Below are positions 5,891-18,619 of a stretch of DNA of 18,619 nucleotides, piece by piece; position 1 is the stretch's first letter, and each line of letters opens with the position of its first letter. A program made the position numbers and the translations under genes. The DNA is taken from sequence record MW929183.1; one strand, 5' to 3'. The DNA comes from Escherichia phage FS2B. The notes below the pieces were generated by a model, which did no database searches, was not told the origin of the DNA, and worked only from the letters and a program-made list of their open reading frames with translations.

Positions 5891-8134
5891 TTAGTTTTTA
5901 CTTCCAAGACGTTTGCCTGGAATCCGTGAATCTTTGAGAGAAGCTTGTTGCTCTTTCTTAGTTACATTAGCTTCTTTCTTTTGGAGTTCCAAAGTTTTAT
6001 CCTGAACACGAGCTTGCTGAACAATCTTCTCTTGGTCTACCTGATGAGACATAACCATCTGCAATTCTTTCAGTACAGATTCATACTGACGTACCTGCTG
6101 TTGCATAAGAGCTAACTTGTGCTTAGCTTGTTCCAGAGTAGCATTGTTATCTTCTTTACGGTTTTCCAGAGTCATTGCATCTGCTGCATTTTCTTGCTTG
6201 AATTGCAACTCTTCCTGACGTAGACTTAATTCATCCGCAGCTTTCTGCTGTTCGAATGTAGTACGTTCACGTTGGTCGAATGCATCAGCAATCATCTTCT
6301 GAGAAGAAGCCTGTACGTTCTCAACCTGAGCTTTAGTCATCTCGAGCTGGAGGATTTCCATCGGAGAAGGTTCTGGAGGCTGATACTGTTCCAGAGGCAG
6401 AAGGTATTTATGTGTATCTTTAATACCCATCAACTCAAAGATCTGTGCAGTCATGTAACGGTCTTGCTCCAAACCAAAGAGAGGTGCTAACTGTGCATCT
6501 GCTGCAATCAGCTGTTTCAAGCTAATCAGCTTCTGTGCACGTTCTGCTTTCTCATTAGGAGAGATGGCTACAACAACTTGAAGGTTGTGACGAGCTGGCA
6601 ATTGTTTCGGATTTACCTGAATCATACCACGAGGGGTTTGTACCTCGATAGGGACTTCACCATTTTCTCTGATAAGATTGTAAATACCACGCATCAGTTC
6701 AACCATACCGTTGTGAGCAATGTTACGACATACCATACGGAGACGGTTCTGTGCAGCATTCATCATCAAGCCTACGGTTGCATAAGCGTTATCATTCTTA
6801 AACACATCAGGGTTGATACCCATGCCTAGTTTAGTTACACCGGTACGTGTCTCTTTAAGCTCCTCAGACATGCCTAGGAGGCCGTCAATACCTTGAGGTA
6901 GGTTATGGTATGGGAACAGGTCAATAGCGTCCTGACGTTCCATTTCAACCACTCCACCGGGACGGTTATCAAGCAGAGAGCGACGATCGTATGCACCAAC
7001 AAGAGCTTTGTATCGACCATAGTTAGCATTGTTGACGTTATCAATATAACCACGAACTAACGCGGTACGTAAATCCTGAATATCTTTCGTAATGTCATAA
7101 ACTGATTGACCATAGAAGGAACCCGGAATCGGATACGGACAGAAGGTTACAAACGGAATGTGAGTTACTTCTTCAGTGTGAAGGATATGCTCACCAGCTT
7201 GAATAACCTGATAGAGTTTAGACTCTTTATTCTTATCTAGAACACCAGTACGAATATAGTGCTCATAAACCCAAACCATAGAAGCGATATCTTCGGTATC
7301 TGTACCAATATCAGCATCAATATCCTGACGCCAGTCAGTACGAGACCAAGCAACTGTAGATTGAGTGGTATCCATCGTATCTGTCCAGTCGTTGAATGCT
7401 TCAATCTCATCTTTAGGGAAGCCCATAGCAACCAGATCTTCTTTAGAACGACGTACACGATGACAGAAGTATTGTGCATCTGCAAAAGAGGTAGCATGTT
7501 CATCAACAAAGATTTGCTCTGAAGGAACATATTCAACTTTCACACGTTTAACAGTTTGTTCATAAGTAACCTTAACATCGACTGTACCGTCTTCATTTTC
7601 TTCAGTGAAGACTTCCAGATTCTTGAGTCCACCAGCTTCTAATCCCTGAACATATGCAGCCAATGCTTCCGGTGGTACACCTTCAGCTTCTTCAGTTTGA
7701 GTAGAAGTTTGTTCATCCCAATAATACTTGATAAAAGAGTTACGAGTAACCAGACATTCTTGTGCAGCAGAAGAGATAATATTGTATCCCGGATTATCAC
7801 GCAGAAGAATTTGGTTAACTAATTTAGTTGCTACATCAGCAGCATCAGAATCCTGTTGGTTGTCAGCTACGAAAGTAACTGCTTCGTCACCAGAACAGAA
7901 TACGTTAATAATATCTTGCAATGTACCGTTAACAGATTCCCAAACAGTACGATCTACCCAACTAGAGCTGCCAGCAGTTACTGGTGCAGGTAAGTTACCA
8001 TAGAAATATTCCCAAGCTTCACGAGCATAGCCCTTAACAGCCATGTCCACGTAGCCTTGAGCGTAATTAAAACGACGTTGAAGGTCAACACGTAACTCGT
8101 CCAACACCTCTTCACTATATTTTTGCTTAGCCAT
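5891..8134 (-). CDS. Portal protein, 747 aa
   Basis: Large ORF immediately downstream of the large terminase gene. ATG 8134 with SD GAGGGAGAG. C-terminal ~150 aa is Q/E/K-rich with heptad character, consistent with a coiled-coil barrel extension as in P22-type portals. Confidence 0.75.
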   Translation of the reverse strand: MAKQKYSEEVLDELRVDLQRRFNYAQGYVDMAVKGYAREAWEYFYGNLPAPVTAGSSSWVDRTVWESVNGTLQDIINVFCSGDEAVTFVADNQQDSDAADVATKLVNQILLRDNPGYNIISSAAQECLVTRNSFIKYYWDEQTSTQTEEAEGVPPEALAAYVQGLEAGGLKNLEVFTEENEDGTVDVKVTYEQTVKRVKVEYVPSEQIFVDEHATSFADAQYFCHRVRRSKEDLVAMGFPKDEIEAFNDWTDTMDTTQSTVAWSRTDWRQDIDADIGTDTEDIASMVWVYEHYIRTGVLDKNKESKLYQVIQAGEHILHTEEVTHIPFVTFCPYPIPGSFYGQSVYDITKDIQDLRTALVRGYIDNVNNANYGRYKALVGAYDRRSLLDNRPGGVVEMERQDAIDLFPYHNLPQGIDGLLGMSEELKETRTGVTKLGMGINPDVFKNDNAYATVGLMMNAAQNRLRMVCRNIAHNGMVELMRGIYNLIRENGEVPIEVQTPRGMIQVNPKQLPARHNLQVVVAISPNEKAERAQKLISLKQLIAADAQLAPLFGLEQDRYMTAQIFELMGIKDTHKYLLPLEQYQPPEPSPMEILQLEMTKAQVENVQASSQKMIADAFDQRERTTFEQQKAADELSLRQEELQFKQENAADAMTLENRKEDNNATLEQAKHKLALMQQQVRQYESVLKELQMVMSHQVDQEKIVQQARVQDKTLELQKKEANVTKKEQQASLKDSRIPGKRLGSKN

Positions 8135-8194: not shown

Positions 8195-9736
8195 TTAGTA
8201 GCTCTGATTCCATCTGCTTACGTTTGCCTCATACAGAGAAGCACTTCCGTAGCTAACGTCATGCTTAGAGCGACCACGATGTGTAACAGAGCACGCTGAA
8301 TAGCGCATTGCATCCATTAAGTCATCATGTTCTTTAATAATCTTACCAACCTTACGGTGATATCTAGCTTTCTCTTCGAATAGCTTAGCATTAGCGGCTG
8401 TGTTAAAGATTTTAAAGCGTCCACTCATCATTCTTTCTCGGATATCTGTGATTCCCGGTTCTACAAAGAAGTTCTTTTTACCATCCATTCCAATTTTGTT
8501 GTAGAAGGTCTCACTCTGTACGTTAACTCCTGCATTCTTATAGAATTGAGCAACAGATGAGCCACTACCTTTCTCAATATTGTCCGCATCGTGCGGCAGG
8601 ATGACAGGAATCCACTGACCACGACCATTAATAGCTGGAGCATGATACACTGGAGTAAAGCCACCTTCTTTATATGAGTCGTAAACATAGATAGTATCCG
8701 TGTTTGCGTCGTAAGCTGTCCAAACAGCAGCAGTTGGGTGATCAATACCAATATCAATTGCACAGACACGTTTCCACGTATCAGGAATTTCGAATGGTTC
8801 ACATTTAATTGTGTCATCCGATACATCATAAATCAAACCACTTCCTAACAATGGCATACCTTTCGAACGCATCTCTAACTGCCACGCTGGAATACCTTCA
8901 GTCATATCTTTTATATCTTGGTCAGTGATATGTCCACCTAGGTCTGCATGAGCATCCCACCAAGAAGCATTCTGGAAATATAGAGAACCTGTGTTCTCAT
9001 CCCCTTCACCTTTCATAAATTTATCTACCAGTTCAGTTAAACCGTTCTCTGGTGTAGCTGTAATTGTAACTAGACCTTTAGTTGTGAGTGTACGTGTGAC
9101 GCACTGTGCGAATATAGCCATAGACTCGTATGGATCTTCTTCGTCTAACCAAATGTAGTCAACTGTTGCACCCATCAATGTGTGTTCACCCTGTTGGGTT
9201 GAACGGAATTCTAATGTACTTAAACCGTCAAACTCTCCTCTTTCATTTTGATGTTTGATTTGTACGATTTGAAGTTTGTTACCATCTCGTTCTATCGTGT
9301 CAATGACGATAGCATCACGAGGAATTACACCTGTCCCCAATAAATTTGTATCCTTTCCGATAGGTGTACCAAACAATTCCTTTTGCAATACTTTCCTTGT
9401 GGAATCCCCTGTAATACCAACTGCCCATGCTAAGATAGGTCTTTTAAATTTATATCCTGTCCACCAAGTTGGGTAGCGACCTGTGACATGACAAGCAAAC
9501 TCGTATGCCTCGCTATAAGATTTACCAACACGGTTCGCTGCACACAAGAATCTAAAGCGATGCTTCAATCCTGCTGCATAAAATTTCTTTTGGAAGTCAT
9601 ACGCCTTGAAAGACAAAATCTTATTATACTTCCTCCATTGGTCACGCTCTTTCAACATATTCAATAGTGCTTTCTTTTCCTCTACACTAAGGTTGTTACC
9701 AGTTAGAGCTTCATAAATTTGTTTATCTAATGACAT
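8195..9736 (-). CDS. terL: Terminase large subunit, 513 aa
   Basis: Walker A-like AANRVGKS followed by HVTGRYP near the N-terminus, acidic WLDEEDP Walker B-like segment, and a C-terminal region with conserved acidic residues consistent with the nuclease domain. ATG 9736 with SD GGAGG. Confidence 0.85.
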   Translation of the reverse strand: MSLDKQIYEALTGNNLSVEEKKALLNMLKERDQWRKYNKILSFKAYDFQKKFYAAGLKHRFRFLCAANRVGKSYSEAYEFACHVTGRYPTWWTGYKFKRPILAWAVGITGDSTRKVLQKELFGTPIGKDTNLLGTGVIPRDAIVIDTIERDGNKLQIVQIKHQNERGEFDGLSTLEFRSTQQGEHTLMGATVDYIWLDEEDPYESMAIFAQCVTRTLTTKGLVTITATPENGLTELVDKFMKGEGDENTGSLYFQNASWWDAHADLGGHITDQDIKDMTEGIPAWQLEMRSKGMPLLGSGLIYDVSDDTIKCEPFEIPDTWKRVCAIDIGIDHPTAAVWTAYDANTDTIYVYDSYKEGGFTPVYHAPAINGRGQWIPVILPHDADNIEKGSGSSVAQFYKNAGVNVQSETFYNKIGMDGKKNFFVEPGITDIRERMMSGRFKIFNTAANAKLFEEKARYHRKVGKIIKEHDDLMDAMRYSACSVTHRGRSKHDVSYGSASLYEANVSRWNQSY

Positions 9737-9805: not shown

Positions 9806-10279
9806 TTAACTCTCGTCCGCTTCCTCCCCCTTTTCAGCGTCCTCAGAGTTGTCTTCTTCTGGAGGCATAACGTCGATACCAAGTGCTCCAGTCAAGAAGT
9901 CCTTGATTTGTGCATTCAATGATTCTTCGTTGATTACATTCTCTTCCTCAATCTTAACTTCAACAGAGGCCGCCTTAGGATATACCAGATCTGCAACTTT
10001 TGATGCAGCCTTGAATCTAAGATCAGGTGGAATATTAGGATCTTCGTAAATTTGAATTAACACTTCATCAGGAGACAAATGACTTGCAGCAACACGGTCC
10101 AACATTAATTGTGTCAGTTTACCTCTACTACCTTTGGGTCGTCCGAATTTATTTCCCTTTTGAAACTTCCCATTGCTTGGGTTCATACCACGGCCTTCAA
10201 GTTCTTCCGTTACTCCGGGTAATCTTCCTGTAATCTCAGCTACCTGTGCAGGCGTGAGTTCTCCGTTTTCTCCAAACAT
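9806..10279 (-). CDS. Putative terminase small subunit, 157 aa
   Basis: Sits immediately upstream of terL. Basic N-terminal segment (GRPKGSRGK) typical of small-terminase DNA-binding regions, acidic C-terminal tail. ATG 10279 with SD AAGGAG at 6 nt spacing. Confidence 0.55.
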   Translation of the reverse strand: MFGENGELTPAQVAEITGRLPGVTEELEGRGMNPSNGKFQKGNKFGRPKGSRGKLTQLMLDRVAASHLSPDEVLIQIYEDPNIPPDLRFKAASKVADLVYPKAASVEVKIEEENVINEESLNAQIKDFLTGALGIDVMPPEEDNSEDAEKGEEADES

Positions 10280-10300
10280 TTTATACTCCTTCTACATTAT

Positions 10301-10335: not shown

Positions 10336-10962
10336 TTACTTACAATCACCAACGGACAGGTTAAACATCTTACCTAGAGCAACAGTCTCACCTTCCCACG
10401 GAAGTTCTACACCCTTCTCTTCCTCTAAAAGAATAGAGCCGTCGACCAAAAATTTTTCGTAGTCTCGCAGTGCGTCGTCTACTAGCTCACTCTTGTGAAT
10501 CCACGTAATTGTTTCTGTACCATCCTCTTCGATTCGAACATCACGATGCCATTCATCTTTGGAGGTAATATAATCATGGAGCATTTCGTATTCAGCTTCT
10601 TCAATCATCTCAATCATTGCACGAGCATAGTCAGGGAGGTGATCATGTTTAGTAGATTCATATTCAACTACTTCCAGAGTAGATGGTTGTGTTTTAGAAT
10701 TAGGGCGAGTAGTATGAATCAAATCTAACATATTTTTGTTCTCCGTAATATTTGGTTTAAGAATACTTCCACTATATAAATCTTGTACAGCTAATCCTGA
10801 AACATTTCCCATAGTTTCTAAATGCTGTAAGCTACAACCAGAGCGACATAGCTGTGAATTATAGTCAACCATGTCCATTGCTTTGATGTGGAAAGGAGAG
10901 CCAGAAGGGAAGCTACCTCCATAAACACCTTCCATATTACGTGCGATTATTTGATTATTCAT
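10336..10962 (-). CDS. Hypothetical protein, 208 aa (start revised from the track ORF)
   Basis: Track ORF runs to 11037, but the ATG at 10962 has a strong SD (AAGGGAGA, ~8 nt spacing) while the upstream part overlaps the preceding gene. No recognisable motif. Confidence 0.55.
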   Translation of the reverse strand: MNNQIIARNMEGVYGGSFPSGSPFHIKAMDMVDYNSQLCRSGCSLQHLETMGNVSGLAVQDLYSGSILKPNITENKNMLDLIHTTRPNSKTQPSTLEVVEYESTKHDHLPDYARAMIEMIEEAEYEMLHDYITSKDEWHRDVRIEEDGTETITWIHKSELVDDALRDYEKFLVDGSILLEEEKGVELPWEGETVALGKMFNLSVGDCK

Positions 10963-11209
10963 TTGTATCTCCCTTGCTGTAATCTTTGTATGTTTCTTTT
11001 CTGTAAGTGCGGAATGCTCTGAAGAAGAGCCAACCAAAACTACTTACATCAATTGTAATATCGAAATCTGTTTCATCATCTAAATCAACAAGACGACCTA
11101 AGCATGTAGCTTCCATCCCTTCTTCAGAGTCACTGTTGATTACGAAAGCGTATGTCTCTGTTCTGAACCGAGGCACCATCTCTGATAAAAAATCTAATAC
11201 TAAATTCAT
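10955..11209 (-). CDS. Hypothetical protein, 84 aa, first gene of the leftward block
   Basis: ATG 11209 with SD GGAGAAG. Acidic protein. Its stop overlaps the start region of the 208-aa gene. Confidence 0.5.
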   Translation of the reverse strand: MNLVLDFLSEMVPRFRTETYAFVINSDSEEGMEATCLGRLVDLDDETDFDITIDVSSFGWLFFRAFRTYRKETYKDYSKGDTNE

Positions 11210-11393
11210 AATTCTTCTCCTCTGAATAAGAGTATAAATGGCACATCATAAGACATACCCGTAAAGGCCACCTCACATTAACACCCGTGAGAATACCTGT
11301 ATTCATTTTCGTAGTCTTCTTCAGAGAAGCTACCGTATTCATCTTCTGTCATACATCCCTCTGATAAAGTTAAGACATAAAGGGGACTTCATG

Positions 11394-11441
11394 TTAAGGC
11401 ACTATCACATTAAGGCTATGTCACGTTAAGGCCTATCCATC
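11394..11441 (+). repeat. Three direct TTAAGGC repeats phased at exactly 16 bp (11394, 11410, 11426); the 12-mer TTAAGGCACTAT recurs at 11865
   Basis: Read directly from sequence: gTTAAGGCactatcacaTTAAGGCtatgtcacgTTAAGGCctatcc. Confidence 0.6.
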
Positions 11442-12088
11442 CATGTGCTGTGTTTAAGCTTTCCACATTTACTACATCTCCAAGTGGACTTATAAAGGGT
11501 GTGAACTCTTTCATCCCCGTAAGCTTTGCGTATCCGATAGTACTCATGATCACATTTGAATTGCTTAATGATTAACTTAATTTTCCACATAAGTTCTCTT
11601 TCAACCTTATATATAAGAGTTTAAAATTCTGATTTGACCGAGTGGGGCTAGCCGCTCGCCGCGCGTTTCCTAAAAAGGGGGAGTCCTCATTTAAAAAAGG
11701 GTTATTGGCAATGCCTTTACCTTCCCTTTCAACGTTCCACCTTTCCCCGTGCCTACTCCCCGTAGTTATTCCCCCGTGTATACTACCCAATACATTACCT
11801 ACCCGTTTATTTAGTTCCCCTTTAAAGAGTGAGAGAAAGGCCAGCACTGTATAATGATTAGATTAAGGCACTATGAATAGGCTAATAATACCCATAAGTA
11901 ATAGCCCACATTCCCCATAGTTACGTTGATAATAGTTTCAATAGTAATGATTATGAGTGCAATAATGATATATGTATTAATTAAGTGGAAAGATAGTAAT
12001 TAACAGTTATTATATTCTTTTATTACTTTCTTTTTTCAGCGTACATGAGCGTAGCGAATGGTCTTTGATGTTTGAGTAATGCTATTAA

Positions 12089-12117
12089 TAGTTAACTAAT
12101 TATTTAAGTGGTATATT
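12089..12117 (+). promoter_or_regulatory. Candidate sigma70 promoter with extended -10 (TGgTATATT), possibly driving the rightward early operon
   Basis: TG at 12109-12110, hexamer TATATT at 12112-12117, weak -35 TAGTTA 17 bp upstream. The -35 is weak and the first gene is ~360 nt downstream. Confidence 0.3.
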
Positions 12118-12481
12118 ATTACCGCACTATCTTGCTATGTTTCCCCGTGGTCTATCCTGCGGTTGTATGCTCCCCGTCCTATATAGATAGTAGAAATATT
12201 TTACCCGTAGGACTTGCTTTCCTTATTAAGAAGTAGTAAATTGTATTCATCGAAGCGAAGCAGTGATGCAAAGTAGCTAGATAGTAGTAAGCTCTCTGAA
12301 GACTAATCGGTCTAAGTAAGTGAGAATGTTTAAAGATAAGGACTCTGCGATTGACTGGTGAAAGCTGGAACACTATCGAGTCAGTGAAGAGGCCAACTGA
12401 GCAATGGCCCTACGTGTGAATCAGAAACACGTGCTATCTTGTGAAACATGAAACCAAATACATATCAACGAGGATTCACAA

Positions 12482-12973
12482 ATGGCTAAATCAATGCAGG
12501 TAGTTAATCTGGCAAGTTATGCACTGGTTGCAGCGATTGGTGTTAGTGCACTGGTCACATCTCTTTCTGATAAGGCTGTTGCTAGTCCTGCTCCTGCAAC
12601 TGATGCGGCTAGTGTCTTCTCTAGTTCCATCAATAAGGGTTGGATGATTTGCAACGGTGCGGATAGTGATGGAAGTACTATTGTATTAAAAATGAAGTTT
12701 AGCAACGTAACTAATGATGGCGTTCTCTTTCAGTCTAAAACACTAGACAATCAGCCTAACAATGATCTAGTTCTCAAGCGCACCGATAGTGACTCGGATA
12801 TGGTTACATTTGGCACTGTACAACGTTACGAAGACGTTAAAGCTGTAACCAATCTAGTGAGTTATGGCCCGATCAATGAGTCGATGATTGCTACAACTGT
12901 TTATAATAACGCTAATAACGCTGTTTATACCGTTCACGTTAGTTTAGCCAACTGTATTAAGGCTAGTAAGTAA
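12482..12973 (+). CDS. Secreted or periplasmic protein, 163 aa, predicted Sec signal peptide, function unknown
   Basis: ATG 12482 with SD GAGGA at 7 nt spacing. N-terminus has a hydrophobic core LASYALVAAIGVSALV followed by A-S-P. Two Cys in the mature part. Confidence 0.7.
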   Translation: MAKSMQVVNLASYALVAAIGVSALVTSLSDKAVASPAPATDAASVFSSSINKGWMICNGADSDGSTIVLKMKFSNVTNDGVLFQSKTLDNQPNNDLVLKRTDSDSDMVTFGTVQRYEDVKAVTNLVSYGPINESMIATTVYNNANNAVYTVHVSLANCIKASK

Positions 12974-18334: not shown

Positions 18335-18619
18335 ATGAAAGCAATTGTATTATCCTCAATCCTAGCTCTGTCCGTAATGGCATCGCCTGTTATTGCTAAA
18401 AGTGGAAACAATGGCAATGGCAATGGAGGTTGTGGTGTAGGTCAATCTACCAATGGTTGCGGTATCGGAGATTGGTTTAAAGGTGAAAAAGGTGATCAGG
18501 GAGAGAAAGGCGACACTGGCGCTAATGGCATTGATGGTAAAGATGGCATTGATGGTAAAGATGGCATTGATGGTAAAGATGGCATTGATGGTAAAGATGG
18601 CATTGATGGTAAAGATGGC
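18335..18619 (+). CDS. Secreted collagen-like protein, partial (runs off window end)
   Basis: ATG 18335, not in the ORF track because no stop falls in the window. N-terminal signal-peptide-like MKAIVLSSILALSVMASPVIA, a Gly/Asn/Cys-rich linker, then uninterrupted Gly-X-Y triplets (GEKGDQGEKGDTGANGIDGKDGIDGKDG...). Confidence 0.65.
   Translation, partial: MKAIVLSSILALSVMASPVIAKSGNNGNGNGGCGVGQSTNGCGIGDWFKGEKGDQGEKGDTGANGIDGKDGIDGKDGIDGKDGIDGKDGIDGKDG
18527..18619 (+). repeat. Perfect 18-bp tandem repeat (ggcattgatggtaaagat), at least 5 copies, encoding (GIDGKD)n
   Basis: Read directly from the sequence; the array continues to the window edge. Confidence 0.9.

Follow-up and report, generated by a model that had tools for sequence, protein, structure and literature searches.

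Phased short repeats associated with the direct terminal repeat of Escherichia phage FS2B and related kuraviruses, and their possible role at the genome junction

Bacteriophage T7 has a linear double-stranded DNA (dsDNA) genome in which the heptamer CCTAAAG is phased at 13 bp directly inward of the 160-bp terminal repeat (nt 175-338 of the T7 record); the terminal repeat itself contains three copies and another two precede its right copy, every one of them in the same orientation. These arrays, whose sequence we verified in the T7 record, are the elements named SRL and SRR, which reportedly were described by Dunn and Studier in 1983 as flanking the terminal repetition. To our knowledge, no function has been established for them. 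In phage lambda, the R3, R2 and R1 elements of cosB lie between cosN, which cosB abuts, and the Nu1/A terminase genes, and their binding by terminase (gpNu1) is proven. Here we describe an array of short, co-oriented direct repeats in an 18,619-nt stretch of Escherichia phage FS2B (record MW929183.1; this whole stretch is called the window throughout), located close to the direct terminal repeat (DTR) of the phage, and set it against these systems.

The window comes from a Kuravirus, a phiEco32-like podophage of Escherichia coli (Gordonclarkvirinae), runs in reverse orientation relative to phiEco32 and reads across the concatemer junction; its repeat region is 72-96% identical to about 96 phage records. 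A 193-bp DTR has been determined experimentally in phiEco32, from nanopore reads in YF01 and by PhageTerm in Paul (PMC9965538), and it is annotated in the YF01 record. The phiEco32 record begins and ends with the same 193 nt, and its reconstructed junction (right end, DTR, left end) aligns colinearly with the window, so that the DTR falls at 11650-11842. It is present only once in the window because the assembly collapsed across the concatemer junction. Matches in phiEco32, ES17, SU10, YF01 and Paul, which were deposited from the physical end, stop at record position 1-2. The DTR and the repeat units associated with it are listed here, with scores in bits from a position weight matrix (PWM) that was trained without the window's own units:

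11650 to 11842, no strand: DTR of 193 bp, placed by colinearity with the phiEco32 junction; 11842 corresponds to phiEco32 nt 1
11377 to 11440, plus strand: tandem array of four head-to-tail 16-bp units (ATAAAGGGGACTTCAT, GTTAAGGCACTATCAC, ATTAAGGCTATGTCAC, GTTAAGGCCTATCCAT)
11234 to 11276, plus strand: two further co-oriented units, 27 bp apart (ATAAATGGCACATCAT and GTAAAGGCCACCTCAC; 15.4 and 23.5 bits)
11671 to 11701, plus strand: two A-run variant units inside the DTR (TAAAAAGGGGG-agtcctca-TTTAAAAAAGGG)
11705 to 11720, minus strand: inverted unit inside the DTR (GTAAAGGCATTGCCAA; 10.7 bits here, 16.1 bits in phiEco32)
11862 to 11877, plus strand: right-flank unit (ATTAAGGCACTATGAA), 21 bp outside the outer DTR boundary

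The original prediction had recognised the tandem array as three copies of TTAAGGC at an exact 16-bp spacing, and these are found as described on the plus strand at 11394, 11410 and 11426. The heptamer under-describes the repeat, however: comparison with 20 relatives, which carry orthologous arrays, yields a conserved unit of about 16 nt with the consensus R-T-W-A-A-G-G-S-n-A-y-n-T-C-A-Y, in which AAGG and TCA are near-invariant, a 4-nt spacer varies, and TTAAGGC interchanges with TAAAGGC and TAAAGGG. A fourth tandem unit, of the TAAAGGG type, occupies 11377-11392, and the four units score 21.8, 15.9, 16.4 and 12.2 bits. Among 300 dinucleotide-preserving shuffles of the window, only one produced any 7-mer three times at an equal spacing of up to 30 bp, and the real window has such triples only in the TTAAGGC array and in an unrelated 18-bp tandem repeat at 18525-18619. 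The bare heptamer is only mildly enriched (7 observed against 2.8 expected; 7 were reached in 5 of 200 shuffles). The verbatim second copy of the 12-mer TTAAGGCACTAT that had also been pointed out does recur, at 11863-11874 rather than 11865-11876, within the right-flank unit. As an exact 12-mer pair it is not significant by itself (9% of shuffles of the 1.3-kb region yield one, and about 15 such pairs are expected window-wide), and the unit that holds it is degenerate, with TGAA in place of TCAY and a score below 8 bits. It gains meaning only through comparison, since most relatives have a like unit 6-32 bp outside the same DTR boundary.

The surroundings of the array differ from those first proposed for it. 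It had been placed in a divergent promoter region, but the divergent gap spans 11591-12481 and the array lies to its left, within a leftward transcription unit. There it extends between co-oriented small genes, from the stop codon of a gene for a Zn-ribbon-like protein to the ribosome-binding site of the next small open reading frame (ORF); the last tandem unit overlaps the end of the Zn-ribbon gene, namely its final codons and its stop codon, which is supplied by the TTA of the third TTAAGGC.

That these are terminal-repeat-associated short repeats, one of two options originally offered, is borne out both in the window and in the whole genome of phiEco32, where the motif is confined to the DTR and its two flanks. 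PWM matches in the window comprise the six plus-strand units at 11234-11440 and one on the minus strand at 11705, with none elsewhere. Of the 12 matches that reach 10 bits across the 77.5 kb of phiEco32, 9 are in a DTR copy or no more than 480 bp from one, including a unit at 77340, 21 bp before the right DTR copy (12.1 bits); the remaining three scarcely exceed 10 bits. Over that genome as a whole the motif is thus essentially restricted to the DTR and its flanks, and the regular expression TWAAGGS-N4-T[CG]AY matches only at 419-672.

Conservation was followed in 21 genomes from two genera, Kuravirus and, represented by SU7, Suseptimavirus. All 21 have four to seven co-oriented units in the left arm, at a tandem spacing of 14 or 16 bp, or of 34 bp where an 18-nt palindrome is inserted. 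Almost all of the Kuravirus genomes examined also have the 11234/11261 pair, with its units 27 bp apart (25 bp in DE5). Among the 13 Kuravirus genomes with an anchorable boundary, all but one have the inverted unit at +55 from the inner DTR boundary, and most genomes have one co-oriented unit (TTAAGGC, TAAGGC, CAGGC or TAAAGGC) 6-32 bp beyond the outer one. Between genomes whose Zn-ribbon ORFs, next to the array, share just 62-68% of their nucleotides, the last two units (23 nt) are 87-100% identical, SU7 included; the non-coding units are therefore more constrained than the coding DNA that adjoins them. We conclude that the units very probably form a family of selected cis-elements associated with the terminal repeat.

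Farther afield, a scan of IMG/VR for two adjacent units returned 93 loci, nearly all of them single matches in unrelated contigs and one a Kuravirus (KBNP1711). The distant relatives 7-11 and GAP52 have other direct-repeat families in the long non-coding stretch before their small-terminase gene and are without this motif there. The 18-nt palindromic insertion, ACGTCATCTTTGATGACT, stands between two units in MN03, Ec3, EK5, phiEc_1 and EC.W2-6, and similar GTCATC-n3-GATGAC palindromes occur in XT18 and Bas92.

Set beside T7, the Kuravirus locus shares a linear dsDNA genome with a short exact DTR (placed here by colinearity with phiEco32), a co-oriented core repeated in tandem with a period below 20 bp in unique DNA next to the DTR, and copies of the motif inside the DTR and on its other flank that are rare elsewhere. 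The two differ in motif (CCTAAAG in T7, TWAAGGS...TCAY here) and in period (13 bp against 14/16 bp), and since only the pentamer TAAAG is common to both motifs, we regard the Kuravirus array as an analogue of the T7 array and not as its homologue. Moreover, the Kuravirus array lies about 210 bp from the repeat with a small gene between and has one inverted copy inside the DTR. T7, for its part, carries its terminase genes at the opposite (right) end, and its array lies around the promoters A0 and phiOL. Recognition in T7 packaging has been attributed to pacB, pacC and the small terminase gp18 (PMC9860248). The likeness to lambda cosB is one of layout and of proposed function: several elements, each about 16 bp long, stand between the terminus and a string of small terminase (TerS), large terminase (TerL) and portal genes, at the end that is predicted to be packaged first, and the role proposed below is assembly of terminase by the cut site. 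Lambda has cohesive ends instead of DTRs, and its cosB directly adjoins cosN; its R sites are not all co-oriented and need a bend induced by IHF, for which the window has no consensus site; and terminase binding, proven there, is putative here.

A second, related repeat lies within the DTR itself. A direct repeat CCCTTTTTTA-10 nt-CCCTTTTTTA has been reported in the DTR of SU10 (PMC4281155), and it corresponds to the A-run variant units at 11671-11701. Like the outer array it lies on the same strand at the same junction and has a core made of a C/G run and a T/A run (SCC-T(n)-A in the sense direction), but its homopolymer runs are longer, it has two copies only and it sits inside the DTR. The most conserved part of the Kuravirus DTR is at about nt 130-170 (PMC9965538), and the A-run variants fall in that block.

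The order of features leftward from the DTR, all on the minus strand, is Zn-ribbon gene, mini-ORF, phi32_4-like gene, phi32_5-like gene, a terminator with the late promoter P6, then the TerS-like, TerL and portal genes; early genes of the right arm begin at 12482 on the plus strand, to the right of the DTR:

11426 to 11590, minus strand: gene for a 54-aa basic Zn-ribbon-like protein (C-x-H ... C-x2-C; phrog_7696, E = 6e-17), between the DTR and the tandem array
11278 to 11352, minus strand: 24-aa acidic mini-ORF (MTEDEYGSFSEEDYENEYRYSHGC) with a Shine-Dalgarno sequence, directly downstream of the array
10955 to 11209, minus strand: phi32_4-like gene, 84 aa, acidic product (phrog_12698, E = 3e-50), the first well-conserved gene after the array
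10291 to 10299, minus strand: gp36-type late promoter P6 (TAATGTAGA), which precedes the TerS-like gene
9806 to 10279, minus strand: phi32_6-like gene for a putative TerS, with family-profile matches in PDB
8195 to 9736, minus strand: TerL gene
5891 to 8134, minus strand: portal gene

A four-member profile of the phi32_6-like family has the TerS of PaP3 and a related, NV1-type TerS from a Pseudomonas phage as its top two PDB matches (6W7T, E = 0.005; 7JOQ, E = 0.03), and a published HHpred result agrees with the small-terminase assignment (PMC9965538). The Zn-ribbon protein, with an isoelectric point (pI) of 9.8, is the only basic protein in the neighbourhood. Its gene is found in 112 phage records by tblastn, at nt 253-414 in genomes that start at the terminus, and the C, H and C-x2-C residues are invariant in the protein alignment; by this pattern of conservation it is a real gene.

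The confinement of the units, their strict orientation and phasing, their variable copy number, their conservation at the nucleotide level and the gene order together argue for a cis-acting dsDNA array that is read by a multimerising protein. The reading that we favour, to which we give somewhat less than an even chance, is that of a junction-associated protein-binding array that aids packaging or the organisation of the junction. The array would act as double-stranded DNA, as a multi-site landing pad coated cooperatively by a phage protein, and once coated it would organise the concatemer junction for the cutting of the terminal repeat and the initiation of packaging. The first candidate reader is the PaP3-type, presumably ring-shaped TerS encoded 1.1 kb downstream; the second would be the adjacent basic 54-aa Zn-ribbon protein. 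In either case the protein-DNA complex would be located on the terminase and portal side of the junction. By analogy with T7, the array-bearing end would be the one packaged first, since the early genes and their sigma-70 promoters are at the other end (SU10 Table S2), and this would give the array the position of lambda cosB. The context is indeed lambda-like, with the terminus followed by repeats, TerS, TerL and portal. In vitro, the nonameric TerS of PaP3 shows sequence-specific binding to a C/T-rich 20-mer at the PaP3 terminus (PMC7672466), and we also count it for a packaging role that the related CCC(T)nA repeats are the most conserved part of the DTR. A more specific version, in which the outer array and the DTR-internal CCC(T)nA repeats would form one multi-site platform read by the PaP3-type TerS, with the Zn-ribbon protein possibly loading or modulating it, strikes us as rather unlikely.

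Several points weigh against a role in packaging. Our searches of the Kuravirus literature found no binding or genetic data on these repeats; the papers searched, PMC4281155 and PMC9965538 among them, do not mention the outer array. It begins 210 bp from the DTR with a gene between, whereas the T7 SRL starts 15 bp from its repeat and lambda cosB abuts cosN. The units stand regularly 25-45 nt upstream of the start codons of small genes, a placement equally typical of expression signals. As SRL and SRR are themselves without an established function, the analogy with T7 transfers anatomy and not mechanism. The small-terminase site of T7 and T3, pacB, is placed in or at the terminal repeat and not in flanking arrays (PMC9860248). 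In the kuraviruses, too, the terminase may therefore really act on the conserved repeats inside the DTR, with a different role left for the outer array. The PaP3 left end has its cos 20-mer at nt 1-20 with no comparable phased array after it, and therefore lends no cross-family support to an array for TerS. Finally, at a period of 16 bp, neighbouring units face opposite sides of the helix, and this arrangement offers no obvious fit to a ring-shaped protein.

The principal competitor sees in the units an operator or other regulatory array that serves the left-end mini-operon (Zn-ribbon gene, mini-ORF, phi32_4 and phi32_5). A phage regulator, such as the Zn-ribbon protein, would occupy the units and thereby repress, activate or block transcription that enters the small genes downstream. 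The 11234/11261 pair is found 25-67 nt ahead of the phi32_4-like start codon, and units lie about 25-90 nt upstream of that of the mini-ORF; NJ01-type genomes with an extra small ORF keep a unit pair directly upstream of the first ORF; the conserved basic protein encoded beside the array is a putative regulator; and a terminator together with P6 separates the mini-operon from the late genes, which would call for control of its own. Against this, a search of 11000-12600 gave no sigma-70-like promoter on the minus strand: the three sigma-70-like sites in that interval are all on the plus strand to the right of the DTR, in the AT-rich stretch at 11850-12150, so that sigma-70 promoters on the gene strand were discarded as an explanation. 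The sequence recognised by gp36, the phage sigma factor, is tAATGTAtA and stands in front of genes 6, 13, 26, 40, 58 and 68 (PMC8948821); gp36-type motifs occur in the window at 2877, 10291 and 11789 and none in the array. Some junctions between units do read TTAATGTGA, near this consensus, but beyond that the six mapped phiEco32 promoters and the units have nothing in common, the promoter flanks being unrelated, and the positions conserved in the units are not those conserved in the promoters; we therefore rejected the units as gp36 promoters and regard the AATGT resemblance as chance. Half-sites resembling those of CRP, PhoB and CpxR, seen by eye, were also dismissed, as their spacing does not fit. 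An operator would moreover leave the units inside the DTR and past its far boundary unexplained, the motif is found nowhere else in the genome, all mapped promoters included, and head-to-tail repeats of variable copy number are unusual for repressor operators. On this balance the operator reading appears improbable. Of the operator for a dimeric or multimeric regulator that had been suggested at the outset, what survives is the multimeric DNA-binding protein, which is still the most natural reader; the regulatory part finds no sigma-70-like or gp36 promoter, and the units are head-to-tail and not dyads. An element acting at the level of RNA, in which an intercistronic or 5' untranslated repeat (sense SCCUUWA-YRUGA) would be bound by a translational regulator, the ribosome or S1 and would tune downstream translation or stability, draws on the regular distance of the units upstream of Shine-Dalgarno sequences and on their position in a co-oriented gene string that is probably transcribed. 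Between the array and the Shine-Dalgarno sequence of the mini-ORF, the minus strand also has an exact T7 gene-10 'epsilon' enhancer, TTAACTTTA (11365-11373), but such a match arises by chance in 26% of shuffles. The region has no Rfam match (E <=1) and its sense RNA folds less stably than shuffles (minimum free energy z = +1.21), on which grounds a structured RNA was rejected, and units are also present in the opposite orientation within the DTR and past it, at places where an mRNA of this kind would not be expected. We consider an RNA-level role very unlikely.

Phased direct repeats in variable copy number are also the classic anatomy of iterons, and plasmid partition-site arrays and other head-to-tail binding arrays (the lambda ori O-sites and R1 parC, for example) share it along with a multimerising reader, so that initiator sites of a replication origin or of a terminal-replication element near the genome end have to be considered. 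A very AT-rich stretch (27-31% GC) at 11850-12150, directly outside the DTR, and three perfect DnaA boxes in the corresponding non-coding region of GAP52 would suit such a role. The AT-rich stretch is, however, on the far side of the DTR at a distance of more than 400 bp, the array and its vicinity contain no DnaA boxes, no initiator or partition gene is adjacent, the 14/16-bp period is below that of typical iterons, and the context differs as well. This lytic phage has the T7-type primase-helicase and polymerase set, and phages with T7-type replication genes are not known to use iteron origins; iterons are thus a distinctly poor prospect. In GAP52 itself, the DnaA boxes (TTATCCACA within GACTTATCCACAGG repeats) are at nt 461-633, in the non-coding stretch before the TerS-like gene of this Cronobacter phage. 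Lastly, the units might be recombination linkers or slippage products with no dedicated function, kept alike as sites of cassette exchange by repeated recombination. The region is mosaic, with two very different Zn-ribbon alleles; unit copy number runs from 4 to 7; and indels fall among the units, namely the mini-ORF cassette (present, duplicated or absent), the 18-nt palindrome and insertions of about 90 nt. Yet AAGG and TCA stay invariant while the spacer varies, the last two units retain 96-100% identity even in another genus (SU7), and orientation is strict and the position in the DTR fixed. An invariant core, orientation and position imply that the sequence itself is under selection: the units may serve recombination, but recombination does not account for them, and we hold little hope for linkers as the whole account.

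Whichever reading applies, the units have practical value. Kuraviruses are widely isolated, with about 96 records, and their termini are usually assigned only by similarity to phiEco32; an oriented motif cluster that brackets the DTR is a landmark for the true genome ends in collapsed or permuted assemblies. If the array is a packaging or junction-organising site, it would define cis DNA for transducing particles or synthetic genomes of this phage group, and a packaging site would provide a second, independent system in which to ask what the DTR-flanking arrays of the T7 type do. If the TerS platform proves true, it would give terminal-repeat packagers of the T7 style their first defined packaging-recognition architecture other than those of T7 and T3, and would offer a testable function for the 40-year-old puzzle of SRL/SRR-like arrays. 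If the units are an expression signal instead, they would represent an uncharacterised layer of control for the left-end genes, which have no mapped promoter.

The junction has further features of its own. Both DTR boundaries in the window read GGCY/AGC, where the slash marks the boundary (GGGGCT/AGCCGC at 11649/11650 and AAGGCC/AGCACT at 11842/11843), and in phiEco32 both read GGCT/AGC; this may be a nicking motif of the terminase. YCCCCGT is a second family of oriented short repeats at the junction: all six copies in the window are on the plus strand within 11514-12177, a number reached in 0 of 200 shuffles, with three in the DTR at a 13-14-bp spacing (11744, 11757, 11771), two in the right flank (12142, 12171) and one in the Zn-ribbon ORF. 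The gp36-type motif at 11789-11797, TAATGTATT, lies in the DTR on the minus strand and faces the left-arm genes; it has one mismatch to the promoter consensus, and its phiEco32 counterpart is TAATGAATA, where no promoter has been reported. The minimum of the cumulative GC skew coincides with the outer DTR boundary. The IHF consensus WATCAANNNNTTR occurs nowhere in the window.

Some annotations of the left-end genes merit comment. In phiEco32 the annotated phi32_1 (296-496) is in another frame than the Zn-ribbon gene (nt 253-414), crosses the repeat array and is not open in the window; this coding sequence is probably a mis-call. Within the Zn-ribbon ORF, CTCTTTCATCCCCGTAAGCTTT (11506-11527) is invariant at the nucleotide level across both divergent Kuravirus alleles, synonymous sites included, and differs in SU7. 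The mini-ORF behaves as an indel cassette, being duplicated in phiEco32 and absent from PGN6866, NJ01 and 172-1. The phi32_4-like protein, acidic as is the phi32_5-like one, has no Pfam or PDB match. The phi32_5-like protein (10336-11037, minus strand) bears the name 'ABC transporter' in PHROGs and in numerous records; Pfam, NCBIfam and PDB gave no match to it, a search for related loci with it returned three loci only, and the label, which goes back to the PHROG name alone, looks unsupported.

Two tandem repeats lie at the ends of the window. A 282-bp repeat at its start (1-609; 2.2 copies, 99% identity) may be a real duplication or an assembly artefact, and the perfect 18-bp repeat at 18525-18619, ATGGCATTGATGGTAAAG, has at least 5.3 copies and runs off the end of the window.

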